From assembly GCA_048938895.1 (NCBI GenBank), contig JBHLLU010000054.1:1-25601 (forward strand): 25,601 bases of DNA. Direction: 5' to 3'. The stretch comes from Promethearchaeota archaeon. Its GTDB lineage: Archaea > Asgardarchaeota > Lokiarchaeia > Sigyniarchaeales > SOKP01. The translations under genes were made by a program, and so were the position numbers. Shown piece after piece: positions 3,963-22,679 of this stretch. Every line of letters begins with the position of its first letter. The first letter of the stretch is position 1. Under the pieces are notes generated by a model, which made no database searches, had not been told where the DNA came from, and was given only the letters and a program-made list of their open reading frames with translations.

Positions 3963-5381
3963 ATGAGCGATCTTGAAGGTTTAACGAGAAATCTAATGAA
4001 AAAAGGGTATTCAGAAAAGAAGATTCTTACAAGAATTGTCCAAGAATATCAAGATTTCAAAAATATAGATAAAAAATCGGCATTGAATTACGCTAGAGCA
4101 ATTTTAGAAGAATGTCAGAAAAGTGACCTTAATCGAGTATCTAATCCCTTTATTAAAAATCTTTTGACTATAAATAGAGCAGATGTTTCGATTGGTAAAC
4201 AAGGAGTAGGATGTAGGGGATCTGGAGATTTTTTTGTTCATAAATTAATTGCAGAATTGTCAGAAACAGAGAAAAGAGCATATTTATCGCCAAGTTCCTT
4301 AGATGATGCTGGTGCTGTGAAAATAAGTGATATTGAAGGTTTTAAAGCTGAAGATGGATTAATTATTGTATCAAAAATGGAAGGTATTCATAGTCGCCTA
4401 AGTGACTTTCCCTTCTTGTGTGGTTTTCACGTAAGTTCATGAAATACGTTTGCATGAAGCGTATCGAGAGCCGCACTACGAGATCTCTATGTAAAAGGAG
4501 CAAAACCCATTTCAATAATGATTGATACCCATCTAGGAGATGATGCAGATGTTGGTAAACTATTTGATTTTATGGCAGGAGTCTCAGCAATTTCAGAATT
4601 AGCAAAAGTACCAATTACTGCTGGTTCAACTCTGCGTATAGGGGGTGATATGGTTATAGGAAACAGATTGGTTGGAGGGATTAGTGCTATTGGAATCTGC
4701 GATCGAGTTCTAGCTCGGAGGAACATTAAAGTGGGGGATAAAATATTAATGACAGAGGGCGCAGGAGGAGGAACAATTACAACAACAGCAATCTATTCTG
4801 GAAATCATCATGTTGTAAATGAAACTGTAAATATCAAATTTCTTGAAGCTTGTGAAAAAATTTTAAGCTCAGATTATATTGACAAGATACATGCTATGTG
4901 TGATGTAACTAATGGTGGTTTAAGAGGGGATTTATATGAAATTAATTATGAAGCGAATTGTGGAGTTCAAATTTATGAGCAAAAAGTTAGGAGTTTAGTT
5001 AACCCTAAAGTTCTTAAAATGCTTAACCAGGTAAATGTTGATTATTTAGGGGTTTCATTAGATGCATTACTCATTTATTGTTCAGATGATATTGCTGCTA
5101 GGATTATTGCTGATTTAAATGAAATAAGTATTAAATGTACTGAAATTGGACTGGTTGATGGTTCAAATCAAGTGAAGATGATATATAGTGAAGGAGAGCA
5201 TGAAACAATTTTACCTCGATTTAGAGAATCTGCCTATACTAAAATCAAACAAGAAGTTGGGGAGGATGAACCCAAATCAAGGGAAGAATTAGAGCATAGA
5301 GTAGAAGAGGCAGCATCACAAGCCTTGAAAAAACGCAGAGAAATAATTGATTTTATAATAAAACAATCATCAAGCGTCTAG
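3963..5381 (+). CDS. PurM/AIR-synthase-related protein, intron-containing: join(3963..4434,4465..5381), 462 aa
   Basis: ORFs 3954..4442 and 4518..5381 are in the same frame, and the gap between them encodes the missing family-like segment RAALRDLYVKGAKPISI. Removing 4435-4464 gives GIHSRLSDFPFLCGFHVTRAALRDLYVKGAKP. Other motifs: GVGCRGSGDF, DDAG, GSTLRIGGDMVIG, DVTNGG. Confidence 0.9.
4435..4464 (+). other. 30-nt archaeal-type (BHB) intron in a protein-coding gene
   Basis: Exon-exon stem 4418-4428 with 4466-4476 (11 bp including G-U); central helix ACGU 4429-4432 with GCGU 4459-4462; 3-nt bulges AAG 4433-4435 and AUC 4463-4465; intron hairpin UUCAUG-AAA-[UACG]-UUU-G-CAUGAA. Contains two in-frame TGA codons. 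Confidence 0.88.
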
Positions 5382-6197
5382 ATTTAAAACCTCGTTCATG
5401 GAGCCTGATCGAAAACCTTCAAGATCAATAGTTATATATGTAAATCCTAATGATTTAAGTTTTTCAGAAATAATTTTAAAATTCTCTTTGGATTGCACTT
5501 TAGGGAAGTCAGATGGCAAGATTTCGATACGTGCTAAATTATTTTCATGTATCCTAACTCGGAGTTGTTTTAGATTAAAAGTATTTCTAATGAACTTTTC
5601 TGCCTTCTTTATCATAATTAATTTATTTTCATTTATAACCTGACCATAGGGAATTCTAGAAGAGAAACAAGCCATAGACGGTTTAGATTGGACTTCCAGA
5701 TCGTAATATTTGGAAATCTCTCTTATTTCTTGTTTATTAATATTATAATCTATATAGGGTGTACAAATTTTAAGTTCAGTTAATGCTTTCATACCAGGTC
5801 TATAATCGGAAAGATCATCTACATTTGAACCATCTAAAATCATATCAAAATTATTAGAGTTTTTGATTTCAATTAATTCATTATACAAACCAGTCTTACA
5901 AATATAGCATCTATTTAATGGATTACAACTAAATTCTTTATCATCTAATGGATTTCTTTCAATAACTAAATGTGGTATGTTATACTTTACAGCAAACTGC
6001 TTAGTTTCTTCAATCTCTTCATCAGGATAGAGAATTGATTTTTCTGTTATTAACAAAGTTTCTTTAGCATATTTATGTGAAAGAAAGGCTAAAAGAGAGC
6101 TATCTACTCCACCTGAAAAAGCAACTAATACCTTTTTTCCTTTTAAAATTGAAATAATATTGTTTAATTTCTTTTCTAAAGTATCTGATAATTCCAT
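5370..6197 (-). CDS. larE: ATP-dependent sacrificial sulfur transferase, LarE family (PP-loop)
   Basis: AFSGGVDS PP-loop, RCYICK, DGSNVDDLSDYRPG, ACFSSRIPYG, LRVRIH, GFRSGSMN. Confidence 0.9.
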   Translation of the reverse strand: MELSDTLEKKLNNIISILKGKKVLVAFSGGVDSSLLAFLSHKYAKETLLITEKSILYPDEEIEETKQFAVKYNIPHLVIERNPLDDKEFSCNPLNRCYICKTGLYNELIEIKNSNNFDMILDGSNVDDLSDYRPGMKALTELKICTPYIDYNINKQEIREISKYYDLEVQSKPSMACFSSRIPYGQVINENKLIMIKKAEKFIRNTFNLKQLRVRIHENNLARIEILPSDFPKVQSKENFKIISEKLKSLGFTYITIDLEGFRSGSMNEVLNLDA

Positions 6198-6290
6198 AGT
6201 TAATTTATGAATTCTTTAACCTAGGAATATCACATTATAAAATAAAAATTACGATTATAAAGTAAAGACTTAAGAAAAGAATATTAAAGA

Positions 6291-7094
6291 TTACCACTTG
6301 AAGTTGGGATTGAAGAAGAGTAATGAGTTAAGCTTCTGTAGTGTAATGAATACGATGATATAATACCACCCAAGTGCACTAAACAGCATCACCCATTCAA
6401 GAAACTGCCTTGTGAAAGGTTCTGGGCAAAAAACGAAGAGGATACTTGCAGTTGAGGGACCTAACATCATAAAATATCCAATTGCTTTAGGAAATAATCT
6501 TTTTTTCAGAACTATCGCTAATCCTGTGAAAAAAGCCCCAAATGCAAAGCCTCCAAATGCTAGTGTAGAAAAATAGTAGTGGGCATCCATAGGGGAACGA
6601 TCCAAGCTAAAAATTCCCACAAAAAACATACCAAACACTCCCACAAAAAGAAATGTAACTCCCATATATCCAAATACCCTTCTGAATTTATTAATGTAAT
6701 ATGTGCGCTTAGAGTTATCTAAATTCTCACTCATATTTGAGCTATACAACCGACTTAAATTTAGTATTAGAGGAATAATGAAGATTGCTGATAGTGTACA
6801 TGTCACATCTAAAATGAAAGGTGCGGGAGTATATTTTAAGGATCCTAAATCACTGATATAATTTAACCATAAACTATATGGAAGATTACCATGAAAAATG
6901 GCCACAAGTAGCCCGGTGATTATTCCTGGTAAAAACGTAGCTAAGCTTATATAAATTGAAATTTTCACAATCTTGGGTTCAGTAATCTTATCATAGAATT
7001 TTCTGCTCTTTTGCCTAACTTTTATGAATTTGGGGGTTACAAAATTAATATAAAAATTGTTAAATCGCTGTAAATATGATTCTTTTTCGCTCAT
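6291..7094 (-). CDS. DUF998-like multi-pass membrane protein
   Basis: YSLWLNYISDLGS, GIFSLD...HYYF and EW motifs; about 6 hydrophobic segments. Confidence 0.7.
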   Translation of the reverse strand: MSEKESYLQRFNNFYINFVTPKFIKVRQKSRKFYDKITEPKIVKISIYISLATFLPGIITGLLVAIFHGNLPYSLWLNYISDLGSLKYTPAPFILDVTCTLSAIFIIPLILNLSRLYSSNMSENLDNSKRTYYINKFRRVFGYMGVTFLFVGVFGMFFVGIFSLDRSPMDAHYYFSTLAFGGFAFGAFFTGLAIVLKKRLFPKAIGYFMMLGPSTASILFVFCPEPFTRQFLEWVMLFSALGWYYIIVFITLQKLNSLLFFNPNFKW

Positions 7095-7262
7095 TTTATT
7101 CGTCTATTGTGATTTTACTAAGATTCCATTAATAATAAATTTTTACCAACTGGTATAATCATTTAAAATATTCTTATCCCAATTATCTTACTTAACTTAT
7201 ATATTAAGATAATATATTTCTTTTGATCTCAAAAATTAGGGGGCATTCTAATTCGATCGATC

Positions 7263-7310
7263 CAAAGATTTATATACTATGCGTGATATAGTATTCATAA
7301 AATACTATAT
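7263..7310 (+). promoter_or_regulatory. BRE/TATA promoter overlapped by inverted repeats (candidate PadR operator)
   Basis: CAAAGA followed by TTTATATA (7269-7276); ATACTAT-N7-ATAGTAT (7274-7294); perfect 10-bp inverted repeat ATATAGTATT-N5-AATACTATAT (7286-7310). Confidence 0.55.
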
Positions 7311-7335
7311 TATAAAAAATAAAAAATTAAAATCA

Positions 7336-7911
7336 ATGGAGTTGATAAAGATTATTAAACGCGTAAAGGAGTTAGATTCAAAGGCTCTCATTGCTTCAGA
7401 GGAATTTAGAAATTATGTAGAAAAACAAGAAACTGAGATTAATAGGGGAATTAGCTCTCTTTGTATACTTTCCATTGTTAGTGAAGCTGAAAACAAGCAG
7501 GACGCCGAAAAAAAAGAATTACATGGTTACAATATTCTAAAACAACTAGAAGAAAAAACAAGAAGAATGCTGGTGATCGAAGAAGGAACGCTTTATCCCA
7601 TATTAAGGAAATTAGAAGGTGATGGTATTATTGAGTCTATAAGAGAAGAAACTGGCAGAAAGAGAAAATATTACTATATGACAGAGTACGGTAAAAATGT
7701 TTTCAATCATCTTGCAGGATTTTATTCTAAACTTACTGAAGCAATTGCACCATTGTTCGATGTAGAAGTGGATTTAAAACAAGATCGATACTTATTTTGC
7801 CCTATGTGCGCAAATAAAATCGATCTCTCCAATTTAGATTTAAGATTTTGTACTATTTGTGGCTATAATATAGAAAAAGAATTAATAGAAAGAGGTTTGC
7901 GAAATGAGTAA
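7336..7911 (+). CDS. PadR-family transcriptional regulator with C-terminal zinc ribbon
   Basis: HGYNILKQL, EGTLYPILRKLE, RKRKYYYMTEYG; C-terminal CPMC...CTICG. Probable start ATG 7336. Confidence 0.9.
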   Translation: MELIKIIKRVKELDSKALIASEEFRNYVEKQETEINRGISSLCILSIVSEAENKQDAEKKELHGYNILKQLEEKTRRMLVIEEGTLYPILRKLEGDGIIESIREETGRKRKYYYMTEYGKNVFNHLAGFYSKLTEAIAPLFDVEVDLKQDRYLFCPMCANKIDLSNLDLRFCTICGYNIEKELIERGLRNE

Positions 7912-8953
7912 TACAGAAATGGATAATTTAGTTAAAGAATATTTACGTAATGTAAAAGCAAAATTACCTGATTGGTTAAAAGATAAAAAAGAACATAAGG
8001 ATATTTTATCTGAACTTGAAGAACATATCTGGAATAAAGCTGAAGAATTATCAGAGACAGGAAACCCAACATTAAGTTCAATTAAATCAGCAATAGAACG
8101 TATGGGTACACCAGAAAGCATTGCAAGAGAATATAAACGACGTGGTACACCAAAATTTTATATAACTGAAGAGATGTGGCCCCTTTATAAAAAAGTATTG
8201 TTTATCGTGTTTATGGTGATTATAGTTATCAATATAATTATTCCTATTGTGAACGTCTTCTTTGATAATATAAGTGGAAAACAAATTTTTGAAGATGTCG
8301 CTACAGGAATACAAATGGGTCTTCTCGGGAGTTTTGTGGTAATCACTGTTATTTTTGTAGTGTTATCGATGCAAGGTTATTTCCCTGAAGATTTTAAATC
8401 CAAGAAGGATTTGAAAGACGAAGAAAAGCAGATCGAACTTGCAAGGGAACGCGGATTAGCGTTTAAAACCAAAGATGGTAAACCATTGAAACCATTTATT
8501 AAACCTGTAGGAGAGATAATAGGGGGAATAATTGTAATAGCAATTGGTTTATTCTTATTAATTCAACCCATCCCTGGTTTGAATAATTTGATAGATCCAG
8601 AATTTCTATTACTCGTGAGATTTGGCAGTTTATTTATCATAGCTGAGGGTGTTTTTGATATGACACGTGGATTGATTGGAAATAGACAAGTTAACACTCA
8701 TCAAATAATTCATGTTATAACGATCATTGTTAAATTAAGCTCAATATCCATTGCTATTCTCATGATGATGCGTCCTGAAATATTTCCAATAATCGTTGTT
8801 GAAGAGCCTTCCGCTACTTTTATAAATATTGGGATTGCACCAGAATTCTATGGTCTTTTTAGAGGATTAGCTGTTTTAATAATGATTGGAATAGCTTTAG
8901 GAACAATAGAAAATTTCTATAATATCTATAAGCTCCAGAAATATAAAATATAG
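7904..8953 (+). CDS. HAAS-domain membrane protein (PadR partner)
   Basis: YLRNVKAKL...ILSELEEHI...AIERMGTPESIAREY is the HAAS signature, followed by about 6 TM helices; translationally coupled to PadR. Confidence 0.8.
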   Translation: MSNTEMDNLVKEYLRNVKAKLPDWLKDKKEHKDILSELEEHIWNKAEELSETGNPTLSSIKSAIERMGTPESIAREYKRRGTPKFYITEEMWPLYKKVLFIVFMVIIVINIIIPIVNVFFDNISGKQIFEDVATGIQMGLLGSFVVITVIFVVLSMQGYFPEDFKSKKDLKDEEKQIELARERGLAFKTKDGKPLKPFIKPVGEIIGGIIVIAIGLFLLIQPIPGLNNLIDPEFLLLVRFGSLFIIAEGVFDMTRGLIGNRQVNTHQIIHVITIIVKLSSISIAILMMMRPEIFPIIVVEEPSATFINIGIAPEFYGLFRGLAVLIMIGIALGTIENFYNIYKLQKYKI

Positions 8954-8963
8954 GTTAAATTAC

Positions 8964-9010
8964 TTTTTTTTTTCTTTTTTATTTAACGCCACACAAAAAT
9001 CAAAAAAAAA
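8964..9010. terminator. Bidirectional oligo-T terminator region between convergent genes
   Basis: T9 and T7 runs on + after the stop at 8953; A-runs (T-runs on -) at about 8995-9010 downstream of the CocE stop. Confidence 0.45.
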
Positions 9011-9025
9011 TTAATGAATTTTTGC

Positions 9026-11269
9026 TTAGTAGGATGTATGCGTGCTGCTCATATTGACTAATTGGGGTAAAATAATACAAGAAGGATAGTCTGGACCAGT
9101 TAAAAGTGTATTATTTGCGATATTGTAATTCAAATAACTGCGAGCTAATGGGGCACCAGTATTTGGGTTTGCAGCAAATCTAGGGTAATTTGAACTCGAG
9201 ATTACTACTCTGATTTTATGCCCTGGAGCAAAAACATAAGCAGTAGACCAACAATCAACAAGTAGTTCATATACATCAGTTTGATTACCTGACATGAACA
9301 CATCTGTGGTATAATTAAAGCGTGATCTAACTGTTAGTGAACCATCAGTTATTAGCATTGATCGTCCATCGGGATAAACATCAGTAAGTTTGACCGTAAA
9401 ATCCGTATCTGTACAATTGGATGTAATAAATAAATTACCCATGATTCTTCCTACAGTTTCGATCGACTCTGTTAGCACAGGAGTTTCAAAAATTAAAACG
9501 TCAGATCTATTTTCAATTTTTCTTTGATCCATAGGACCAGCAAGATCAAATGGTTGGTTTTGACCACCTAGATTAGGGACAGGATCACGAGGATCATATA
9601 GATAAGAGAAATTCCTATTTAAAGGAGGCAGAGTACTATTAATTAAACTCCCACTTGCATTAAAATACCATTTATCATCAACATGGTCAAGAGGCCAATC
9701 GTATGCATACCTCCAATAATTCCATTCTTTTGAGGGGGTATCAACATCACCCATCAAATAATATCCTACTCTTGTACCATCCCATTTAATACTTTTCCTT
9801 AAAAGAGCCGCATCAAATACTTTTTTCTCCCAATTAAATATCATATCAAAACCAATTGAGTTTTCCGGATAAATTAAATCACCTTGTTCAGTCGACCAAA
9901 TATTAACATGTGTCCAAGGACCCATAATTAATTTCTGATGCCCTTTTGCTGTTAGTGTTCCATTATCATCGTATCCAATATAACCATCTAATGTTCCTTG
10001 TAAAAAATGGTCATACCATCCTCCAACATGTATTCCATATACAGAAATATTCGAATAATGAGGTCCAATTGGGTTTGATAGAGATGTTGAATTATAAAGT
10101 GTTTCATTTTTTGGACTTGAATAAGTAAAAAGAGTATCTATTTGGTATTGCCAGTTATCAGGAGCAGTACTTTGTATCCATGTCTCTACAGAGGATTTAT
10201 GATAAGATCCTTGGTATATTGCATGATCATACAATTCTGGAGTACCAAACCATAATTGTTGTGCAACTAATCCTTCAGGAGCCATCCCCGCATAAAAATA
10301 TTGATTTATACATAGAGCAGAAGGGCCAGCACTTGCAATTTTACCATTACACCAGCTTCGATCTAAAATCCAATTTATAGTATCTACCCCATCTTGATAT
10401 GATTTAGTAAAAAGTAAGAATCTATCACCCCCTTCGGAATCATGTGTACCTCTCATATCCTGAATAACCAAGTGATAATCTTGTGTTGAATAGAAGGTTC
10501 TATACATACTCATTCCATTTTTACCATAAGGTGTTCTTATAAGAATTACAGGTTTTGGAGATCCAAAAGATCCTGGAGCAATATATACATCAGTTGCTAG
10601 TTTTATACCATCTCTCATTTCTATCATGTAAGTCTTCTTTTCTGGAGGTGCGTAGGTTGCGGATAGTGTAATAATTGTTGAAGGAATAAAGATTAACAGT
10701 ATTAAACCAGCAACTTTCCCGTATTTTGGGATTCTATTTAGTCTTCTTTTATCATATTTCTCTATCAGTTTTTGAAGTGATAAATCTCCAATTTTTAATC
10801 CATAATGCAGATATGCTATCAGACTTATAGCAATGGCGGCTATTGAGAAATAATTTAATTCAATGAAGAGAAACCAAATTATTCCTATCAAAGGAATTAT
10901 AATATTGAATAATTTTACCATAAGATCTAAATATTTAAATCTAAAGTTTTTGCTAATGTGTTTAAGATAAGAAGTGGTAATTAAAAGAGAGTAAAAGGAG
11001 ATAAAAATCGCTATAGGAAAGTAAATCATACCGAATAAAATGAGTGATATCTGTTTTATACTAAAATAAATCTTTTCATTTTTATTAAATAACTTTATTT
11101 CTTCATCTAATTCGTTATCATGATCTTTATGATATCTGAAGTAATAAGCGATCACATAAATTCCGCGGCAGATTATCAGCATTAGTAAATTTGTAATAAA
11201 TATATCTTCGAGATTTAGGAATCTTAAATTATAAAGAAAAAAGAATACCAATATTATCGAATCAATCAT
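9026..11269 (-). CDS. CocE/NonD (X-Pro dipeptidyl-peptidase-like, S15) hydrolase with N-terminal multi-TM region
   Basis: MRDGIKLATDVY, RTPYGK, QDMRG, nucleophile elbow GPSAL, GGWYD, GPWTH, YDPRDPVP, DTDFTVKLTDVYPDG, SSSNYPRF. Start at 11269 or 11350 (uncertain). Confidence 0.88.
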   Translation of the reverse strand: MIDSIILVFFFLYNLRFLNLEDIFITNLLMLIICRGIYVIAYYFRYHKDHDNELDEEIKLFNKNEKIYFSIKQISLILFGMIYFPIAIFISFYSLLITTSYLKHISKNFRFKYLDLMVKLFNIIIPLIGIIWFLFIELNYFSIAAIAISLIAYLHYGLKIGDLSLQKLIEKYDKRRLNRIPKYGKVAGLILLIFIPSTIITLSATYAPPEKKTYMIEMRDGIKLATDVYIAPGSFGSPKPVILIRTPYGKNGMSMYRTFYSTQDYHLVIQDMRGTHDSEGGDRFLLFTKSYQDGVDTINWILDRSWCNGKIASAGPSALCINQYFYAGMAPEGLVAQQLWFGTPELYDHAIYQGSYHKSSVETWIQSTAPDNWQYQIDTLFTYSSPKNETLYNSTSLSNPIGPHYSNISVYGIHVGGWYDHFLQGTLDGYIGYDDNGTLTAKGHQKLIMGPWTHVNIWSTEQGDLIYPENSIGFDMIFNWEKKVFDAALLRKSIKWDGTRVGYYLMGDVDTPSKEWNYWRYAYDWPLDHVDDKWYFNASGSLINSTLPPLNRNFSYLYDPRDPVPNLGGQNQPFDLAGPMDQRKIENRSDVLIFETPVLTESIETVGRIMGNLFITSNCTDTDFTVKLTDVYPDGRSMLITDGSLTVRSRFNYTTDVFMSGNQTDVYELLVDCWSTAYVFAPGHKIRVVISSSNYPRFAANPNTGAPLARSYLNYNIANNTLLTGPDYPSCIILPQLVNMSSTHTSY

Positions 11270-11339
11270 AAACTTATATTGAGATAAAGATATTAATAAA
11301 ATTATCTGTAAATAATTAGGATTCAATATATAACCGCGT

Positions 11340-12797
11340 ATGGAAAACAAAAAGCGAAATACTGAGGAGACTGCCTTTAGAAGGGCATTTGGAATTCATT
11401 TAACTTCAAGTAAAATCTTTAAAGATTATATTTTTCCTGAAATTCAAGATAAACTTTGGCAATATAAATGGATAGATTTGTATGCGGGTGAAGGAAATTT
11501 AATAATTCCAATATTGAATTCAATTCCTCTTAATGATCGGATAAAATTTTTTAATGATCATGTTTTTCTTTCTGACATTCATCCAGAAATGGTCGAGAAA
11601 TGTATAGAAAATGTAAGAAATTATGGAATTCCTTCTGAAGTCGCTTTAAATAACATTAAAGTTCGAAATAATTTAGAGAACTTCCCTAACTTCTTGAAGG
11701 ATGAAAAATTACCTTTATATCATATTACGAATCCCCCTTATTTATATTTGGGCTACATTAGAAAGCACAAAGAGACTCAGAAGTATTTAAAACTTTTTGA
11801 AGGAAAAAATGAAGGTTATCAGGATCTTTATCAAATCGCTATGATCAGCGATTTAAGAAATAATATTCAAAATCTCGTATATATTATTCCTTCTAACTTT
11901 TTATTTGGGGCTTCAGTTTCAAATAGATTTAGGGGAGATTTCTTAAAATTCTATGATATTAGAAAGATGTTTATCTTTGAAACCAAAGTTTTCGAATTTA
12001 CAGGTACAAATATTTGTATCGGTTTTTTTGAAAAGAAATCAATTCCAAAAGAAGAAAATGTAGAATTTAGTGGATTAAAAATTGAAAATCAAAGAAAACC
12101 AAAAGAAATGAATTATATCCTCAAACCTGAATTTAATTATAGAGCAGGTTCTGAATTTGATGAGTTTCTTAAGGAATACCAGCTTAAAGACACACTCAAA
12201 GTAAAATATTATCTTTTGAAGAAAGATTTATTGGTTAATTCAGGAGGGAACAAGTTAGACGTTATTGATGCTAATAAGTACCAAAACAATCAGTATAAGA
12301 AATTAACAATAGAAGTAAATAATGAGTTTAAAGAAACTATTCAATCGAATATATTATATGTTCGAACAGTCGATACTGGTTCTTACGACGGAAGAGTTGG
12401 GTTAGGTGTAATTTCTGAAGATTTCAATGTAAATGGAATTTATGTTTCTGGGAATACCTATCGGACTCATCCAATCCAAATATTCTTTGAGCCAACAATT
12501 TCATTAACTGAACAAAATCTTTTAAAGAATTATTTTAATTTTATATTAGAGACTTTTAGAGAGAGACTTGATAGTAGCTTTCTTACAACGTACAAATATT
12601 CTAATGCAGAGTATACGAGAAAATACTTAGGCTTAACTCAAGCGAGAAAATTAATTCAAACCTATCCATATACTAATATTTCTCTAAGGCTTAAGGAAAA
12701 GTTAGCTAATTTTATAAGAAAGAAAGATTTTAATGGAGTATTAGAACAATTAAAAACTTGCAAAAAGGAAAGCAATCAATCCGAGATACGCACCTAA
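11340..12797 (+). CDS. Amino (N6-adenine-type) DNA methyltransferase, gamma-type motif order, no adjacent endonuclease
   Basis: Motif I DLYAGEGNL precedes motif IV TNPPY; also DLYQIA, YIIPSNFL and VFEFTGTNICI. Confidence 0.85.
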   Translation: MENKKRNTEETAFRRAFGIHLTSSKIFKDYIFPEIQDKLWQYKWIDLYAGEGNLIIPILNSIPLNDRIKFFNDHVFLSDIHPEMVEKCIENVRNYGIPSEVALNNIKVRNNLENFPNFLKDEKLPLYHITNPPYLYLGYIRKHKETQKYLKLFEGKNEGYQDLYQIAMISDLRNNIQNLVYIIPSNFLFGASVSNRFRGDFLKFYDIRKMFIFETKVFEFTGTNICIGFFEKKSIPKEENVEFSGLKIENQRKPKEMNYILKPEFNYRAGSEFDEFLKEYQLKDTLKVKYYLLKKDLLVNSGGNKLDVIDANKYQNNQYKKLTIEVNNEFKETIQSNILYVRTVDTGSYDGRVGLGVISEDFNVNGIYVSGNTYRTHPIQIFFEPTISLTEQNLLKNYFNFILETFRERLDSSFLTTYKYSNAEYTRKYLGLTQARKLIQTYPYTNISLRLKEKLANFIRKKDFNGVLEQLKTCKKESNQSEIRT

Positions 12798-13622: not shown

Positions 13623-13649
13623 ATTTTAATTCTTCTCAAGAATGAAATT

Positions 13650-14468
13650 TTAGTTTATTGAATAATTCTTCTTTTGATTACTTCCAGCAGATTTTATTTC
13701 TTCGATAATACCTTTTAATGATGTTCCATTGTCTTTTAAAACATTATTTTCAAGGAAAGTCCCCATAACGACAATATCAGCACCTGCTTCAACGAAAGTT
13801 TTCGCATCCTCTTTATTACCTACACCACCCCCGACAATCAAAGGAATATTAAGGATTTTTGAGCACATTTCAATATGCTCTTCTGGAATCCTTTCACTTC
13901 CAGAACCTGCTTCTAAATAAATCATTTTAAACCCAAACATCTCTGCTGCTAAGGCATAAGCGGTGGTCAACTTTGGTTTATTCCTTGGTAATAATTTAGC
14001 ATTGCCGATCCATCCAGCGCTGGCTCCTGGTTCTATTATTAAATAAGCCATCGAAATATATTCCAAATTAGCAGCTTTAATAGTATATGAAGCTAAAGCT
14101 TGTTCTCCAACGATAAAGTGAGGATCTGCAGAATTTAATAAAGACATGAAGAAGATAGCATCAGCATATTGAGAAATATTGCTAATTCCTCCAGGGAAAA
14201 TGATCAAGGGAACTTTTACTTTTTCCTTTATTTGTATTATGGTTTTATCCACAAATGTTTGATTAAAGACAGTACTTCCCCCTATCAAAATGGCATCAGT
14301 TCCCGCTTCTTCGGCATATGCAGCCATTTTTGCTGCCTTATTTGGGCTCTGCCTCAATGGATCTGGATCAATTAGGGAGAAGTGTAAAGCTCCTTCATCA
14401 TTTATTTTCTTAATAATATACTCATAAGTACTTTTTTCGACATACTCATCAATTATAATATCAACCAT
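13650..14468 (-). CDS. Geranylgeranylglyceryl phosphate (GGGP) synthase, group II-like
   Basis: HFSLIDPD, ILIGGS, IFPG, FFMSLLNS, YLEAGSG, LIVGGG, GADIVVMGT; Trp in SAGWIG at the aromatic-anchor position. Confidence 0.95.
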   Translation of the reverse strand: MVDIIIDEYVEKSTYEYIIKKINDEGALHFSLIDPDPLRQSPNKAAKMAAYAEEAGTDAILIGGSTVFNQTFVDKTIIQIKEKVKVPLIIFPGGISNISQYADAIFFMSLLNSADPHFIVGEQALASYTIKAANLEYISMAYLIIEPGASAGWIGNAKLLPRNKPKLTTAYALAAEMFGFKMIYLEAGSGSERIPEEHIEMCSKILNIPLIVGGGVGNKEDAKTFVEAGADIVVMGTFLENNVLKDNGTSLKGIIEEIKSAGSNQKKNYSIN

Positions 14469-14490
14469 ATTATCACATCTTTTACATCAT

Positions 14491-15882
14491 TTATTTCTTT
14501 TTAGTGTTAACAACCATTCTTTTAATTTTATCATAAATTCTAATAATATTTTCCTTCCATTCTGGAAATTTAGTAGGATTTTCAGGAAAACTTTTGTAAA
14601 GCCTCGAAATTTCATTCATTCTAATTCTCAAATAGTTTAAATCCAATAATAGGTTAGGACGGGATATTCCTTTGAATGCTTTTATTGCCATATTTACTAA
14701 TGATAAATTTAATCCACCTTTCGATGATATCTCTAGAATTTCATCCCCACTTAATAAATCACGTTCTAAACCAAAATTTAAATCCTCATTTGATAAGTGT
14801 TGTAGAACTATTCTTAATAAATCTAAAGCGGCAAATTCAGCTCCAAAACTTGTCATGACACTATGATTATAGTCCCATAATGCATTAACTGAATAATCCT
14901 CTTTTCCGATAGCAGAAGTAGCAGAAATAGCAGCATAATAACCTGCTCTCATTGAAGGATCTATTCCTCCACCATGAAGCGGATTCACCTGACAAGCAGA
15001 ATCCCCAATAAGCATTATCCCATTGTCAGTGCAAGACCATAATGGTCTTCTTACTGGAACTACACCCCCTCCCGAAGAAATTATTTCATATTTAGAGGTT
15101 TTAATAAACTCTTGAAAAACATTTTTTTGGTAGAAATCCTTTACTCTTCCCTTGTAATCCATAAAAGCTCCTAAGCCTATGTTAACGGAAGATCTATTCT
15201 TTGGGAAATACCAGATATATCCTCCTGGGGCTTTCTCCTGATCAAGTATTATTGTTATGTATTCAGGATCTTGCACTTCTTGGTCTTTTGATGAAAATCT
15301 TACGATTTCACGATAACATAGAATACTATCTTCTTTGGAAATGGTAGTTTCGATAAGATTACTAGAAAGAGCTTTTCTTAAAGGAGAATAAAAACCACTC
15401 GCATCAATTAAAACTTTGGATTTTAATTCAATCTTTTCTCCATTTGTTAATTTTACCTTTAAACCACTAACAGTACCATTAGTGTAAATTAAATCTAAAG
15501 CCATAGTCTTATCTAAAAATTGGTTTACACCAACATCAATAGCCTCGTTCAATAATCTTTGACCAAATTCTAATCTATTTACAATATACCCTGCTTGTTT
15601 CGGATCAACTAAAGTTAAACATTTCTTTAGGTTTGGTGAATATAGTTTTGCTCCTTTTATATGACAAGATAGCTCATCATTTCTTGGATGATTTATGTTC
15701 AAAAGGTCAAATATCTCATTTCCAACTGCATCTCCACATATCTTATCCCCGATTTTATCCCTCGGTTTCCCATCAATAAGACATACGTTTAAACCATTTT
15801 TAGCAGCAAACCTCGCGGCAGTGGTACCACCTGTACCAGCTCCGACCACAATAACATCAAACGATTTTTGGATGTTTTCCAT
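14491..15882 (-). CDS. Geranylgeranyl reductase (digeranylgeranylglycerophospholipid reductase)
   Basis: VVGAGTGG FAD-binding motif, KICGDA, PGGYIWYFP (YxWxFP), GDSACQVNPLHGGGI; in the lipid operon. Confidence 0.9.
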   Translation of the reverse strand: MENIQKSFDVIVVGAGTGGTTAARFAAKNGLNVCLIDGKPRDKIGDKICGDAVGNEIFDLLNINHPRNDELSCHIKGAKLYSPNLKKCLTLVDPKQAGYIVNRLEFGQRLLNEAIDVGVNQFLDKTMALDLIYTNGTVSGLKVKLTNGEKIELKSKVLIDASGFYSPLRKALSSNLIETTISKEDSILCYREIVRFSSKDQEVQDPEYITIILDQEKAPGGYIWYFPKNRSSVNIGLGAFMDYKGRVKDFYQKNVFQEFIKTSKYEIISSGGGVVPVRRPLWSCTDNGIMLIGDSACQVNPLHGGGIDPSMRAGYYAAISATSAIGKEDYSVNALWDYNHSVMTSFGAEFAALDLLRIVLQHLSNEDLNFGLERDLLSGDEILEISSKGGLNLSLVNMAIKAFKGISRPNLLLDLNYLRIRMNEISRLYKSFPENPTKFPEWKENIIRIYDKIKRMVVNTKKK

Positions 15883-15945
15883 GAAATTAGTATTGTATTC
15901 TTTACTTAATTTTAAAATTTTTGATATATCATTAAATTAAAATTG

Positions 15946-16698
15946 TTATAATAGAGTTAATAAATATATAATTAAGGTACTTCCTAAGGGAACGGTTAAA
16001 TCATCAAATGTACTAGGGGAAATTAATTCAATTACTGTTGCAAGAGCACTTGTAATTAGTGAATATAAAATGATTGTAATAAAAGAGAGTGGATCTTGAA
16101 AAGCAGGAATTAATAACCCAAATAGAAAAAATGATACAAAACATACTATGAATGAAGTTATAAAGAACGTTGTTGAACCTTCAAGAGTTCTTTTTGAATT
16201 TGTCCAAGGTAAGCTAATACCAATCTTACCCCAACGTTTTCCAATTACCGAAGCTAGTGTATCAGCCACTATCATTATCAATACTCCCGAGATAGGAAAA
16301 TAAAAATTATCGGGGGCGATAATTCCGAAAATAAAGACTAATGAAGTAATTGAAAGGCAATAAAAAAATGGTCCTTGAAGATAAGCTCTTTTTAAACCAT
16401 CTTCTTGTTCTTCTGAGATTGCATCATATAACTCCTTTAATTGCTTAACTTTTGAATCTTTTGAACTGAAATATACGAATAACGTTAAAGTTCCTGCTAT
16501 AATAGTTGGCCAAAATGGCCAAAAGTAAAATGTTGAGCTTAATATCGCGAGTCCCGCAAACATATGAACTGCTTTACGAGCAGAGAATTTGGAAATTTTA
16601 CCTTTTTTATAAAATGTTAATGGTATAAATATGGTTAGAAGAATATAAATATACGCAATTAAAACTACAAATAAATCCCATAAGAAATTATAAGCCAT
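15946..16698 (-). CDS. CTP-dependent polyprenol kinase family protein (phytol/farnesol/dolichol kinase-like)
   Basis: ARKAVH, GPFFY, ADTLASVIGKRWG, KRTLEGS, DDLTVPL; multi-TM. Probable start ATG 16698. Confidence 0.82.
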   Translation of the reverse strand: MAYNFLWDLFVVLIAYIYILLTIFIPLTFYKKGKISKFSARKAVHMFAGLAILSSTFYFWPFWPTIIAGTLTLFVYFSSKDSKVKQLKELYDAISEEQEDGLKRAYLQGPFFYCLSITSLVFIFGIIAPDNFYFPISGVLIMIVADTLASVIGKRWGKIGISLPWTNSKRTLEGSTTFFITSFIVCFVSFFLFGLLIPAFQDPLSFITIILYSLITSALATVIELISPSTFDDLTVPLGSTLIIYLLTLL

Positions 16699-16828
16699 AA
16701 TGAACAATACAGTTTATTAATAAACCAAAAAAGAATTGGTAGCAATAAAATCTTACTAATAGAAAGGATTTTATTACTTTAAAGAGTATGATTGATATTA
16801 TAACAAATGTAAAAAAAACATCTAATAT

Positions 16829-18013
16829 TTAGAGCTTAGTTGGGGGTAATGGGGGTACTTCATTAACATTCCATTCATCTACTAATGGATATGACCACCA
16901 ATGTTTAGGAATGGTATCATAAACACCATATTTTTCTAAACCTCTAGTAAATGCTTCAACATTTTCCTTAGGAGCTTGGATATGGTTTACTTGGGGATAG
17001 AAATAAGCGCCAAAACCTCCTTCTGGAGTTCCAAGATTTCGAATCATATGCCACACTTCTCGTTCGCATTCTTCAGGAGTGCCTAATGTGTAGATCGATT
17101 GAATATTTACACAAGCCCACATCATGATTTTTCCTCTGAATTGATGCAATTCAGGATATCCAGTCATTCGAGGGCTATCTAGCTCCAGAGAATCTAATTT
17201 CCAATCAATTAATTGAGGGATTATAGGGTCAATTTTCCCACAGCAGTGAAGATGAAAATCACACCCCAGTTTATGTGCTTTTTCAATTAAAGATCTGTAT
17301 ACCGATTCATAAAATTCTTCAAATAACTTTGGACTGAAGAATGGTCCCTTTTGTTCACCCAAGTCATCATAAATAACAAATCCATGAGGATCTCCATCAT
17401 GTTTTACCCACATTTGCTCATAATTTAAGTAAATTTCTGTTATTCGATTCAAAAGTTCCTTGAGGTTTTTCCGATTTTTGTAATGATCTAGCAAAAAATT
17501 GCTAAAACCTCTCATTTGATTAGCAACCTGAAAAGGTCCAAGACCGAGTGAGCACATCCGATATTTTTCTCTAGCTTGGTATTTAGCTGTCTGAATAGCG
17601 AAAGAATATCTATCATGATCATCGAAATTTGGAGTATAAATTTCAAAATACTCATCAAGTTGATCATAATCTAGCAGTGAAGGTCTTCCAGGGTGTCCCA
17701 TGGTCTCAATACCCCCTTTTATCCAAATAGTACCAAATTCATCTATTTCCTCTCGGGGTATATTAAACCAATTATTATATTTAGGATTTTTAGCCCAATC
17801 TGGTTTATCCCATTTCCATAATCCATATTTTATTAATTCATCAGCCCCATGAGGGAATAATCCCTCTTCATTTTTATTATGGCCTGGTTGCCAATTTTTA
17901 GAGGGTAGCGAAAATAATGTATAGACATCGCTCCCACTGCTAAATTTCCAAATTGGGACTTTATCTGGCTTTTCGAATTTTAGAGCTTTTTTAACCCGTT
18001 CGATTGATTTCAT
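16829..18013 (-). CDS. Uroporphyrinogen decarboxylase superfamily protein (corrinoid methyltransferase-like)
   Basis: ERVKKALKFEKPDKVP, DEFGTIW, MRGFSNFL, DDLG...FFSP, HLHCCG, GTPEE. Confidence 0.8.
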   Translation of the reverse strand: MKSIERVKKALKFEKPDKVPIWKFSSGSDVYTLFSLPSKNWQPGHNKNEEGLFPHGADELIKYGLWKWDKPDWAKNPKYNNWFNIPREEIDEFGTIWIKGGIETMGHPGRPSLLDYDQLDEYFEIYTPNFDDHDRYSFAIQTAKYQAREKYRMCSLGLGPFQVANQMRGFSNFLLDHYKNRKNLKELLNRITEIYLNYEQMWVKHDGDPHGFVIYDDLGEQKGPFFSPKLFEEFYESVYRSLIEKAHKLGCDFHLHCCGKIDPIIPQLIDWKLDSLELDSPRMTGYPELHQFRGKIMMWACVNIQSIYTLGTPEECEREVWHMIRNLGTPEGGFGAYFYPQVNHIQAPKENVEAFTRGLEKYGVYDTIPKHWWSYPLVDEWNVNEVPPLPPTKL

Positions 18014-18140
18014 GTTTAAAATGCCTTATTATAATTACCTTTAGATCATATAGATATAAAGAATTTAGGATAGATTAAGATTATTCCTCAAAACTTAAAT
18101 CTTATAATAAAATAGATATAAAATATTACATTTAGAATGA

Positions 18141-19511
<1,371 letters not shown>

Positions 19512-19657
19512 TATATTCTAGCTATATATTTTCAGGATATGGGATTTTCGCAGGTAATTCATGGTATTTATACTCAGATTAGAATTAGAGTAAAAAAAAA
19601 GAAAATTAGTCAAATGGACTTTCCATAGATCTTCTATTTAAATCTTGAGAGGAAAAG

Positions 19658-20524
19658 TCATTTCAAAGGCTTATCTAATATTTCAGAAAAAATTAGAAAT
19701 TCTGAAAACTCAAATGGTTTTAAAAAATAACCCTCGAATTCTACTTTTCTTAATCCTTCTTCTATTTCGCTGTAGGGAAAGGCGGTCATCAAGAATATTT
19801 TATAATCGTTGTCTCTATGCATTGATCTAATTCTCGTACATAATTCATATCCATTTAAATCTGGGAGAAGGATATCTAAGAGAATTATTTTAGGATTTCC
19901 ATTTTTTAAAACTTCAATGGCTTCATTTCCACTTAAAACCGATTTACAAGAGATATCGAATTTCTCAAAGTATTTTATAAGAACTTTTAGTGTAGGGGCA
20001 TCATCGTCGACAATTAAAATATCATACTGCTCTGATTCGTAAAAATTTTCTAATGAATTCTTGATTTTTTTCTCAAGTAAAATACTTGAATTAAAAATTT
20101 CTCCTACAATAGTTTCTATTTCATTATTAATTTCTTCATTATATTGCTCAAGAAGTATCTGGGAATTTGCTTTAATAGATGTTAATGGTTCTTTTAGATC
20201 ATGTGAAATTTTTGGTAGATTAACTATATATTCCTTATTTAACCCTTCTCTAAGCCTTCTATTGATATATTCATTTACACTTTCTCTGATTAATTTAGAA
20301 AAACCTTTCAATTCTCCTGATTCTTCGATAAATTCTTTCCAATAATTTTTGATTTCCTTCGAAACATACAAAGAAATCCTATCCTTATTTCTACTATAGA
20401 TTTTATCCCCCTGCCTCCATTTCTCAAATTCTTTAGTTATTTTACCTCGCCATATAGCTTTTTTGCCTGTTTCCTCTTCAAATTTTTTCATATCTAGTTC
20501 TATTTGGGATTGACTACTGGACAT
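19658..20524 (-). CDS. Multidomain regulator: short N-terminal module, ribbon-helix-helix-like domain, HisKA and receiver (no HATPase)
   Basis: RISLYVSKEIKNYW...FSKLIRESVNEYI (RHH-like); SHDLKEPLTSI (H-box); receiver with VDDD, LLDILLP, MTA and KPF. Start ATG 20524 or GTG 20536. Confidence 0.8.
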   Translation of the reverse strand: MSSSQSQIELDMKKFEEETGKKAIWRGKITKEFEKWRQGDKIYSRNKDRISLYVSKEIKNYWKEFIEESGELKGFSKLIRESVNEYINRRLREGLNKEYIVNLPKISHDLKEPLTSIKANSQILLEQYNEEINNEIETIVGEIFNSSILLEKKIKNSLENFYESEQYDILIVDDDAPTLKVLIKYFEKFDISCKSVLSGNEAIEVLKNGNPKIILLDILLPDLNGYELCTRIRSMHRDNDYKIFLMTAFPYSEIEEGLRKVEFEGYFLKPFEFSEFLIFSEILDKPLK

Positions 20525-20526
20525 GC

Positions 20527-20556
20527 TTTTTACCACGAAATGGACTTTTTTACCAC
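20527..20556. promoter_or_regulatory. 10-bp direct repeat TTTTTACCAC x2 at 20-bp spacing, upstream of the regulator (candidate operator)
   Basis: Copies at 20527-20536 and 20547-20556, between a - strand TATA-like element (about 20574-20583) and ATG 20524. Confidence 0.45.
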
Positions 20557-20699
20557 AAATATAAAGGAGCTTATTTATAAATATTTGTCTTTATTTTAAA
20601 TATTTGAATTGTCCAAAGTATGGTCAGGCATTTCCGACCCAAAATCTTTGAAAAGAGAAAAAAAAGAGAAAAAAAAAATTTTGATAGTTGATTATTCTT

Positions 20700-21512
20700 T
20701 TATAATTCTAGTATCGTAAAGAAATTTTGATAAGCTAAACTACCTATAATAAGTCCATCAGGGTCATCAGTTGAAATTTCAAAATATATATATTCTGCCT
20801 TATTTATCCATAATGTATCGGTAAGAACGATATTACTAGCTCCTACGTCCCCAATAAGTTCAATAAACGTTCGGAGGATTCCATTCACTCGAAGAGCCAA
20901 ATCGACTCTATAACCACCCACTAAATGCCCAACCTGTAGATTTACATGTATTTGATAATATCCGTCTCTGGGAGCTATGAATTGATCATTAATTAAATCA
21001 AAATCTGAATTAAGATCGTAGTCAAGAGAATCAAAGTCCACCTTTTCAGTAGTCGCATAAGGGATGGTTTGACCACCTGAATAACCTCGTATCTTTGAAA
21101 GGATTATATTTTCTACATAAACAATTACATCATCCTGGGCTACATCCATGCTGGGAATATCAATCACAATTATAGAAAGATTCCACCACCCATTACCAAT
21201 AGTACTAGTATTCCATACTTTAGGCAAAAAAATTCCTATTTCAGTTCCATTTCTAAGAATAGAAACAGAATAATTCTCACTACCATATATAAAAGCACTA
21301 ATTTTTACATTTCCTGATACAACTTCATCATAATCAGGATCTAATATTTTTACAATTATTCCTCCTAGCGCATCTTTCCCATCAGTTCCATCTTTTCCAG
21401 AAGGTCCTTCAACCACTTGAAAGTTTACAACTGAATATACTCCTACTGCTAATCCAGATAATCCAATGATGAGTGCAATAAGCCCAAAAAATGAATTTTT
21501 ATTTTTTACCAT
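20700..21512 (-). CDS. Membrane-anchored protein with short collagen-like repeat, Ig-like segment and C1q/TNF-like C-terminal domain
   Basis: N-terminal TM helix; GPS-GKD-GTD-GKD; WNT...NGWWNLSI (Ig-like); VDFDSLDYD...FIAPRDGYYQI...FFTI (C1q-like). GAGGTG RBS upstream of ATG 21512. Confidence 0.65.
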   Translation of the reverse strand: MVKNKNSFFGLIALIIGLSGLAVGVYSVVNFQVVEGPSGKDGTDGKDALGGIIVKILDPDYDEVVSGNVKISAFIYGSENYSVSILRNGTEIGIFLPKVWNTSTIGNGWWNLSIIVIDIPSMDVAQDDVIVYVENIILSKIRGYSGGQTIPYATTEKVDFDSLDYDLNSDFDLINDQFIAPRDGYYQIHVNLQVGHLVGGYRVDLALRVNGILRTFIELIGDVGASNIVLTDTLWINKAEYIYFEISTDDPDGLIIGSLAYQNFFTILEL

Positions 21513-21619
21513 AAATTTCACACCTCTAGGTTGTAGACTAAAATGATTATGTTACATGTGTAAGACAGTTTTGTATATAAATATACTATACATTACATAA
21601 TAATGTAAATTCTATTACT

Positions 21620-21835
21620 GGGATGAAATAAGTAAGGACACACTCGAGGAGGTCTGCCCTGCGTTGCTCAATTTGGCATTTGAGAGCGAAAAAGGTCTGC
21701 TCAAAAACCAGTTGGGAAACGTAATTTTCCAAAACCACAAATTATATCGCAGATCTAGCCAGACTCACTTTCCCCTCCTCTAAGGATTATATTTAATAAG
21801 GATTTTTGTTGGATTTTCGGTCAGAAACTCATCCT
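21620..21835 (+). ncRNA. Candidate structured non-coding RNA (family not recognised)
   Basis: GC-enriched non-coding island with nested compatible stems (listed in findings), TATA-like sequence at about 21575-21585 and T-tracts at about 21851-21890. Confidence 0.4.
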
Positions 21836-21959
21836 ATTCCTCTATCCCCTCTTTTGTTTTTTGGCTCTTTTTTCTCTTCTTTTTTTTTATTGAGTAGCCA
21901 GAAAATTACAAATTCTCTATACAAGGGAAACTTAAATCCTTTTTTTTATTATTACAACT

Positions 21960-22075
21960 ATGGGGCTTGTCAATCAAGTATCCCCTATTCTACCTTAAAA
22001 CGCTTAGAAGCAAAAGAACTGGTTGATACTAAAATGGATACACTGAATGGAAGAAAAGTAAAGAAAAAAAAAAAG
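21960..22075 (+). pseudogene. Remnant of a PadR-like winged-helix gene
   Basis: YSTLKRLEAKELVDTKMDTLNGRKVKK resembles the PadR recognition helix and wing (compare YPILRKLEGDGII...GRKRK in the 7336 gene); no plausible N-terminus; decays into an A-run. Confidence 0.45.
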
Positions 22076-22100
22076 GTTAGAGTAAAATTTATTGTATTAT

Positions 22101-22556
22101 TCATTCAAGATATTCTGCGCCTAACTCAGTAGCAAGACCTTGTATCTCTCCAAATGCGAATCTGCCTTAAACGGTAGTTCCGAAAAAGTTTGCATCTTGA
22201 AGGTTTCCTTCAATGACAAGGTCTCCAGACATGTATGCGCTAGTAGAATCAATTTCACCAGCACTTAATCCAGTCCAAGTTGCTTGAGTGGCTTTCATGG
22301 TAACAGTTGCATCATCATTTGCACCTTCACCATACTCAACTGCACCTTCACCAAATTTAACCCAATATTTAAAATCTAGATCAGTAACTTCCATTTGAGC
22401 AATGACAGTATCAATATCCTCGAGTTCTTCCTTAAATTCCTCGTTTTCTTCACCAAGCTGTTTCATGAATTCAAATAATTTAAGAGCATCAGAAGGTTCT
22501 CCTGGACCCTTCTCTCTCATTGCTTTTAACTCATTAATTAAATTTTCATCAACCAT
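22101..22556 (-). CDS. SCP2 sterol/lipid-binding domain protein, probably intron-containing: complement(join(22101..22159,22190..22556)), 141 aa
   Basis: DDATVTMKA...GEIDSTSAYMSGDLVIEGNLQDA is an SCP2 signature. After the TAA at 22169-22167 the same frame continues AFGEIQGLATELGAEYLE*, supplying the missing terminal helix. Confidence 0.8.
22160..22189 (-). other. 30-nt archaeal-type intron with relaxed BHB motif
   Basis: Helix AUGC/GCAG (3 of 4 pairs), bulges AAA and AUU, intron hairpin CUU-UUU-CGG-[AACUA]-CCG-UUU-AAG, in-frame TAA. BHB-register cuts give GAU GCA A|UC GCA UUU = DAIAF. Confidence 0.68.
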
Positions 22557-22679
22557 TCTTTTATCAACTTTTTTTTTTTTTGATATTTTTTTATATGTCA
22601 TCTTGTTTTAAAGTTTTATTTAAAAATTTGCAGTTATGTCCAAAATCACATATAGTCATAGGAATCAATCTATTTAAAA

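Follow-up and report, generated by a model that had tools for sequence, protein, structure and literature searches.

Candidate bulge-helix-bulge micro-introns in protein-coding genes of a Promethearchaeota archaeon

A contig of a Promethearchaeota archaeon (JBHLLU010000054.1 of assembly GCA_048938895.1; 25,601 nucleotides (nt), hereafter the window) contains two unrelated genes, each interrupted by a short insert, and this raises the question of whether the inserts are removed from the messenger RNA in the manner of tRNA introns. The first gene, on the + strand, encodes an AIR-synthase-related (AIRS) protein, and the second, on the - strand, a protein with an SCP2 domain. An initial annotation had described in both an insert of 30 nt in phase 1 with an in-frame stop and a hairpin, and this description was confirmed for insert 1, located at 4435-4464 (+) and splitting a codon as A/CG, and for insert 2, located at 22189-22160 (-) and splitting a codon as A/TC. 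As noted there, the inserts are not similar to each other. Comparison with the rest of the genome revealed no further copy of either one. It is highly likely that both are archaeal bulge-helix-bulge (BHB) introns in protein-coding mRNAs, members of a small and recurrent class of mostly 30-nt elements, and splicing of some messenger RNAs in this lineage is very probable. The suggestion of tRNA-type splicing thus holds in so far as both inserts fit a BHB, insert 1 being canonical and accompanied by covariation, but insert 2 is of a relaxed form. The window corresponds to contig C101 of genome G000, a draft of 4.65 Mb in 174 contigs. Its attribution to an Asgard lineage was borne out by the titles of homologs and related contigs, which name Promethearchaeota, Promethearchaeia, Hod-, Thor- or Hermodarchaeota.

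In the AIRS gene, an open reading frame (ORF) ending at 4442 and another starting at 4518 lie in the same frame, and reading through from 3963 to 5378 gives one protein with two TGA codons. The Pfam AIRS N-domain matches residues 114-230 of this read-through product as a single stretch crossing insert 1. The RNA of positions 4415-4485 folds with -23.1 kcal/mol (z = -3.11; 0/200 shuffles as good) into the canonical hBHBh' motif, consisting of an 11-bp outer helix H1, a central helix with 4/4 pairs, two 3-nt bulges and a 6-bp intron hairpin H2, which shows one mismatch and a 5-nt loop when read over nine positions. In the literature, a BHB is defined by a 4-nt central helix, 3-nt bulges situated on opposite strands at each exon-intron border and flanking helices with two or more pairs. 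The cut of the splicing endonuclease, EndA, falls between the second and third nucleotides of each bulge. Excision of 4435-4464 yields the threonine codon A/CG and the sequence FHVTRAAL, which is the consensus of intron-less homologs; a cut after the first bulge nucleotide would give serine and not threonine, so the homologs favour the second-nucleotide rule.

According to the mechanism proposed, the pre-mRNA would fold with the final four nucleotides of the exon paired to four of the intron, leaving two 3-nt bulges on opposite strands, and EndA would cut each bulge at the position given above. RtcB would then ligate the exons, whereby the in-frame stops would disappear and the conserved junction codon would be recreated. 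The predicted peptides across spliced junctions include FHVTRAALR, NLQDAIAFGEIQ and GHFGHIELAR. Such introns would occur here and there in a few protein genes within this genus or family of Promethearchaeota, with gains and losses in individual genes.

A search with the read-through AIRS protein found thousands of homologs, the best 120 of which are 434-477 amino acids (aa) long, share 69-79% identity with it and, where named, originate from metagenome-assembled genomes (MAGs) of Promethearchaeota, Thor-, Hod-, Odin- or Lokiarchaeia. When 13 homologs of 460-477 aa were aligned with it, exactly ten residues, SS*NTFA*SV, were missing in 12 of the 13, and the intron-less homologs read FH-VTRA(A/C)LRDLY across the gap. 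The homolog P0029 has another, stop-free insert of ten residues at the same site. It seems that this database protein reads through a stop-free copy of the AIRS intron and carries ten spurious residues.

The gene was found in 116 of the 121 genomes of the same order, and its identity to related loci is 66-83%. Both flanking peptide motifs were present in 28 of the 30 ortholog loci fetched; in 13 of these, G000 included, a 30-nt insert occupies exactly this site, and the remaining 15 lack it. The distribution is patchy, presence and absence being seen together inside genera g1 and g4. In a 13-sequence alignment, 98.9% of the 273 cells of the BHB structure are paired, versus 33-56% after shifting the partner strand by 1-3 columns. 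The outer helix is paired in 99.3% of cells, with one pair changed on both sides, the central helix in 98.1%, and two of the six pairs of H2 are changed on both sides; altogether three pairs (8 cells) are changed on both sides, a covariation score reached by 0/500 shuffles. A collection of species-representative contigs, which overlaps the genomes of the order survey, contains 80 AIRS loci, of which 73 could be scored: 55 lack the insert, 15 have 30 nt and three have 29 nt, the other seven being without a recognisable motif. The 29-nt variants belong to three species, occupy the same site (loci L217, L238 and L253) and have a split gene call; since 29 nt shifts the frame, read-through is not possible for them. 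Split AIRS matches also appear in the result table for G062, G077, G042, G084, G105, G006, G034 and G047. In the exons next to the insert, the codons of intron-bearing genes make up the 11-bp outer helix (...GUGUGGUUUUC / GAGAGCCGCAC). Orthologs lacking the intron have other codons there, often with Cys for Ala (TRACL versus TRAAL), so that the coding sequence is apparently constrained by the intron.

The SCP2 ORF halts at the TAA codon of insert 2, and its frame is open for another 22 codons. All 29 ortholog loci of relatives read GNLQDAIA(Y/F)GE without an insert, and ten extra codons (NFFGTTV*GRF) occur only in G000. Only one 30-nt deletion, that of 22189-22160, restores DAIAFGE and the invariant Ile, through the junction codon, and the BHB register of the insert, with 3/4 central pairs and an H2 of 3 bp, coincides with this deletion, neighbouring offsets scoring lower. 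Insert 2 consists of one nucleotide, a 23-nt hairpin (22188-22166; a 9-position stem with six pairs and a 5-nt loop), GCAG (22165-22162) and AU. The bulges would be AAA at 22191-22189 and AUU at 22161-22159, the second of which, on hand reading, is not closed by an outer helix, and the motif is at best of a relaxed HBh' type. Hand inspection indicates that most 30-nt introns share this layout of one nucleotide, a 23-nt hairpin (9-position stem, 5-nt loop), four exon-pairing nucleotides and two bulge nucleotides. The intron sequences themselves demonstrate no similarity to one another, and neither a donor nor repeated copies were found elsewhere in G000.

Translation, and not splicing, might deal with such inserts if the ribosome hopped between matching codons, read through the stops or recoded them, the RNA keeping the inserts. 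Matching codons do flank the inserts (GUA...GUA at 4431 and 4461, and GCA...GCA), G000 possesses a tRNA-SeC gene and P0029 is open through its insert. However, hopping would lead to FHVSRA and DAFGE and not to the conserved FHVTRA and DAIAFGE, all three stop codons are found inside inserts, and variants of 29, 31, 37 and 85 nt shift the frame. Moreover, the conserved feature that covaries is the BHB and not a pair of take-off and landing sites. This translational explanation is very improbable.

The recurrence of such inserts was assessed by a motif-free census, in which G000 was compared with the congeneric genome G098, a single 2.27-Mb contig, by tblastn of ORFs against DNA in both directions, counting the inserts that break the frame in G000 and not in G098. 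Among the 1697 G098 ORFs with a usable G000 match, eight frame-breaking inserts were found in seven genes (Table 1). If all are introns, they would occur in about 0.4% of comparable genes, a figure that can only be a minimum, since the census is blind to introns that G098 and G000 have in common, and would constitute a rare but recurrent class in this lineage. Recurrence beyond the window, which the initial annotation had anticipated, is thus evident from these inserts and from EF-2 and RNA polymerase A' in relatives. Its wider suggestions, that such splicing is common and that many apparent pseudogenes are intact, were not supported, given the rate and the decoy-level frequency of BHB motifs at ORF breaks described below. 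Phase 1 is not a shared property either: the inserts of CdhD and of EF-2 site B are in phase 0, and inspection by hand places EF-2 site A there too.

Table 1. Location of the interrupted genes, the putative introns and their predicted structural elements (window coordinates unless a contig is named)
Feature	Location	Strand	Length	Basis or remark
AIRS (PurM/HypE-like) gene, exon 1	3963..4434	+		homologs begin MSDLEGL at this ATG
Outer helix H1, 5' strand (exon 1), paired with 4466-4476	4418..4428	+		minimum free energy (MFE) fold; 11 pairs
Central 4-bp helix, exon strand ACGU	4429..4432	+		pairs with GCGU 4459-4462 (MFE fold)
5' bulge AAG; predicted cut after 2nd nt (4434/4435)	4433..4435	+		fold; junction codon
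Putative intron 1 (insert 1), phase 1, in-frame TGA at 4440-4442 and 4455-4457	4435..4464	+	30 nt	alignment gap in homologs; census
Intron hairpin H2, 6-bp stem UUCAUG/CAUGAA	4436..4458	+	23 nt	MFE fold
Central helix, intron strand GCGU	4459..4462	+		fold and alignment
3' bulge AUC; predicted cut at 4464/4465	4463..4465	+		fold; 30 nt by symmetric cutting
Outer helix H1, 3' strand (exon 2)	4466..4476	+		fold and alignment
AIRS gene, exon 2, stop at 5379-5381	4465..5381	+		Pfam AIRS and AIRS_C
SCP2-domain gene (22601..22101), exon 1	22190..22601	-		Pfam SCP2, residues 47-137 versus profile 2-93 of 101
Central helix, exon strand (A)UGC, with UGC paired to GCA 22165-22163; A/G mismatch	22192..22195	-		hand reading, scored 3/4
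Putative intron 2 (insert 2), phase 1, TAA at 22169-22167	22160..22189	-	30 nt	missing from 29/29 ortholog loci; census
SCP2 gene, exon 2: (I)AFGEIQGLATELGAEYLE and stop codon	22101..22159	-		collinear with conserved C-termini of 29 orthologs
CdhD insert	C117 21017-20988		30 nt	census; Pfam sees one CdhD stretch across insert
Winged-helix (wHTH) protein, first insert	C5 41715-41686		30 nt	census
Winged-helix (wHTH) protein, second insert	C5 about 41554-41525		30 nt	census
DnaG/Toprim-like insert	C144 15801-15765		37 nt	census
Hexapeptide-repeat (LbH) insert	C123 71048-71078		31 nt	census
RNA polymerase A' insert (locus L296)	C159 9088-9172		85 nt	census
EF-2 insert loci	L152, L165, L167, L169, L173, L175, L177, L181			eight related genomes; G114 (L177) has both sites

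Six of the eight G000 inserts, placed in the register defined by homology, combine three or more of the four central pairs with an H2 of at least 3 bp, a combination seen at 458 of 39900 random positions (1.15%). The inserts peculiar to G098, one in EF-2 (site B) and one in a 215-aa protein, both show it, EF-2 site A fits a BHB by hand reading, and a stop-free 10-codon indel at C174, taken as a negative control, shows no BHB. Cutting in this register restores Thr in AIRS, Ile in SCP2, Glu in RNA polymerase A' and, for the DnaG-like gene, QTE.

RNA polymerase A' of G000 is split inside Rpb1 domain 1, positions 4-75 of the Pfam profile being matched upstream and 74-312 downstream, and beyond the preceding stop the downstream piece lacks a start codon. 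The central helix of its 85-nt insert is fully paired (4/4, AUAU/GUAU), and removal of the insert restores GHFGHIELARPV. According to the result table, the gene is split near residue 90 in four other genomes and has inserts of roughly 30 nt in six more (variants in G050, G067, G051, G009, G038, G099, G083, G019, G105 and G039). For EF-2, eight of the 30 loci fetched carry nine stop-bearing 30-nt inserts at two sites, SITAH/IDHGKTT and MTDSD/DEEQERG. The structure at site B is paired in 94.9% of cells, versus 30-47% when slid. Longer EF-2 matches are listed in the result table for G040, G050, G063, G079, G006, G054, G025 and G071.

These data also bear on the idea that the interrupted genes are pseudogenes or that the inserts are artefacts of assembly or binning, as might be suspected of a draft in 174 contigs with 7.5% contamination. 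The same inserts are present in many independent assemblies, however, with changes that preserve the structure; their hosts include single-copy essential genes (RNA polymerase A', EF-2) in genomes up to 100% complete, and the flanking exons remain conserved. Both window inserts are furthermore spanned unchanged by DNA contigs of two public runs, X1 and X2, which belong to one study and possibly represent the source samples, and are therefore not assembly slips. Among the 15 runs listed, a look for RNA found no run of that kind. An origin of this kind seems even less credible than ribosome hopping or recoding.

The removal of BHB introns from mRNA, which is the reading preferred here, would make full-length protein dependent on EndA and RtcB, as had been proposed, and the enzymes are indeed encoded. 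PF01974, the catalytic domain of EndA, has two matches above the cut-off in G000, in ORFs of 202 and 200 aa, and PF01139 (RtcB) has one (E = 4.9e-170). The two EndA paralogs lie on contigs C83 and C123. The EndA of G000 probably combines two kinds of subunit in an (alpha-beta)2 arrangement and has a relaxed specificity; such an enzyme would need two paralogs, and G000 has two. The accessible parts of two papers credit the (alpha-beta)2 type with the cutting of relaxed motifs (PMC5829648; PMC2738675), and the accessible text of a preprint describes two EndA paralogs in 44 of 60 Asgard genomes, as well as heavy loads of tRNA introns (bioRxiv 10.64898/2026.10.13.758758). With aragorn, only 24 tRNA genes were found in G000, 13 of them with introns of 6-33 nt and no mode at 30, a range that sets aside one dubious tRNA-Pyl call with a spurious 1828-nt intron. 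It is probable that many tRNA genes of this genome are too interrupted for detection. The gene of tRNA-SeC is among those called by aragorn. The winged-helix gene with two 30-nt stop-bearing inserts relative to G098 (C5:40967-41749, L145) is located directly upstream of rtcB (C5:38935-40242) on the same strand.

In eukaryotes, splicing by IRE1 and RtcB of XBP1 or HAC1 proceeds by endonuclease cuts at stem-loops that release a short mRNA intron, after which RtcB joins the ends and the frame or the product changes. The initial annotation had envisaged a comparable post-transcriptional control layer; in a stronger version of this view, splicing would be conditional. Every 30-nt insert inspected, except that of P0029, has an in-frame stop, so that unspliced RNA would give no full-length protein, and the neighbourhood of the two-intron gene and rtcB could be read in the same sense. 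Nothing in the sequence favours regulation, though: the hosts are housekeeping genes of unrelated function, intron-less orthologs are frequent (15 of 28 for AIRS), and constitutive removal, as assumed for cbf5, is simpler. Conditional control is accordingly considered quite improbable. The IRE1 system also differs in having another endonuclease, a twin stem-loop motif and stress regulation, and neither homology nor regulation is claimed here.

Motif searches gave a different picture from the census. A strict hBHBh' scan of the whole genome with an ORF-restoration filter returned 2436 sites, versus 2338 for a decoy of mirror geometry, so BHB motifs at ORF breakpoints are not in excess; the initial annotation had named such parity with a control as part of the outcome that would speak against it, and parity is what this bulk test produced. 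In a relaxed scan of 894 same-frame interruption sites, likewise level with its decoy, only a small peak appeared at a length of 30 nt with a score of at least 14 (five versus one in the decoy). A descriptor of the family (9+5+9 hairpin) gave no excess, with 719/320/98/16/1 matches versus 719/325/95/14/1 for the decoy. Motif search alone cannot find these introns; the comparative census did. Pfam showed most of the top new matches of the relaxed scan to be spurious; two of them proved to be pairs of adjacent genes and not introns, namely that at C85 94081 (Pfam LMWPc, then BacA) and that at C130 12645 (Pfam TldD, then PmbA). The relaxed-scan matches at C95 39017 and C53 3868 are doubtful.

A number of points weigh against the interpretation of the inserts as BHB introns. 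Cutting and joining are deduced from DNA sequence, through the inserts, their structure, covariation and distribution, and the enzyme genes. The position of the cuts is taken from the general rule for EndA, and the two EndA paralogs are presumably the alpha and beta subunits. The mirror decoy gives as many ORF-joining BHBs as the real geometry, and the draft genome has an estimated contamination of 7.5%. The 31-nt LbH insert gave no BHB in any frame-restoring register and might represent either a degenerate intron or a genuine frameshift; the second wHTH insert needs a 6-nt bulge and has a boundary that is ambiguous over three offsets. At EF-2 site B there is one compensatory change only, and the score observed was attained in 170 of 500 shuffles. 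Insert 2 has three of four central pairs, six of nine stem pairs and an H1 of 1 bp, that is, no outer helix; the fold of 22210-22140 (-) is no better than that of shuffles (z = -0.27; 79/200 as good), and the insert is unique to G000 (0/29 relatives), hence no covariation.

These properties of insert 2 suggest a narrower alternative, in which intron 1 is a true BHB intron, and the SCP2 gene has suffered a recent 30-nt insertion that stays in the RNA and shortens the protein by 22 residues. The confinement of the insert to G000, its weak BHB and its poor fold agree with this, and so does the Pfam SCP2 match, which already reaches profile position 93 of 101 before the stop. On the other hand, the insert is exactly 30 nt long and has the same 1+23+4+2 layout as the supported introns, its BHB register is the sole boundary that restores the invariant Ile, and 18 codons downstream of it still match the orthologs. 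It seems unlikely, on balance, that insert 2 is an unspliced insertion, and its interpretation as a relaxed BHB intron is preferred.

A pre-mRNA intron in cbf5 of Crenarchaeota was reportedly described by Watanabe in 2002. As presented in the accessible part of one paper (Yokobori 2009; PMC2738675), the cbf5 introns are like the present inserts in being of BHB type within a coding ORF, in the often relaxed motif and in a patchy gain and loss among relatives, and the authors link them to a hetero-oligomeric endonuclease of relaxed specificity. They concern one gene in one phylum, whereas the present inserts involve at least seven genes of one Asgard genome, as well as EF-2 in relatives; the modal length of 30 nt with a 23-nt hairpin is a feature of the present class, unlike cbf5. 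The splicing of cbf5 was shown experimentally, while here it is inferred from sequence. The tRNA introns of Asgard archaea, in the accessible text describing them (bioRxiv 10.64898/2026.10.13.758758), share the BHB definition (four exon nucleotides paired, 3-nt bulges), the presumed enzyme and repeated gains; their hosts, however, are tRNA genes, their median length is 22-23 nt, and the word "mRNA" does not occur in that text. The BHB intron of HVO_1309 in Haloferax volcanii is likewise an mRNA substrate of the archaeal splicing endonuclease, but is situated in the 5' untranslated region (UTR), and the present inserts lie inside the reading frame; the accessible part of that report names cbf5 as the only other archaeal mRNA BHB intron reported up to 2020 (PMC7714728). 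In the literature searched, with subscription journals and supplements outside its scope, BHB introns of archaeal protein-coding genes are reported only for crenarchaeal cbf5, plus the Haloferax 5'-UTR case, and no report of mRNA introns in Asgard archaea was found.

Several unrelated genes of one Asgard genome, including that of the largest RNA polymerase subunit, and EF-2 in relatives appear to need tRNA-type splicing. If RNA confirms this, the archaeal lineage nearest to eukaryotes would routinely splice mRNA by means of a protein enzyme, a point of relevance to the debates about the origin of introns. Confirmation would also explain core genes that are split or contain stops in Asgard MAGs, mark database proteins such as P0029 as wrong and provide gene callers with a concrete rule for these genomes. 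A more tentative idea, possible but not the likelier one, is that the inserts form a family of 30-nt micro-introns of one fixed layout that is proliferating, still inserting into protein-coding genes in Promethearchaeia, where SCP2 would be a species-confined gain, and already present in core genes (RNA polymerase A', EF-2, DnaG-like). Such a family would imply a dedicated mechanism of spreading, for instance, reverse splicing by EndA and RtcB followed by copying into DNA, and protein expression in the closest archaeal relatives of eukaryotes would then hinge on mRNA splicing, possibly conditionally.

The window as a whole is AT-rich, with a GC content of 0.27-0.36. No tRNA gene was detected in it, and no Rfam family matched in the window or in the segment 21450-21950. 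The intergenic stretch 21615-21800, which has no Rfam match and folds no better than shuffles, is distinguished by a G+C content above that of its surroundings.

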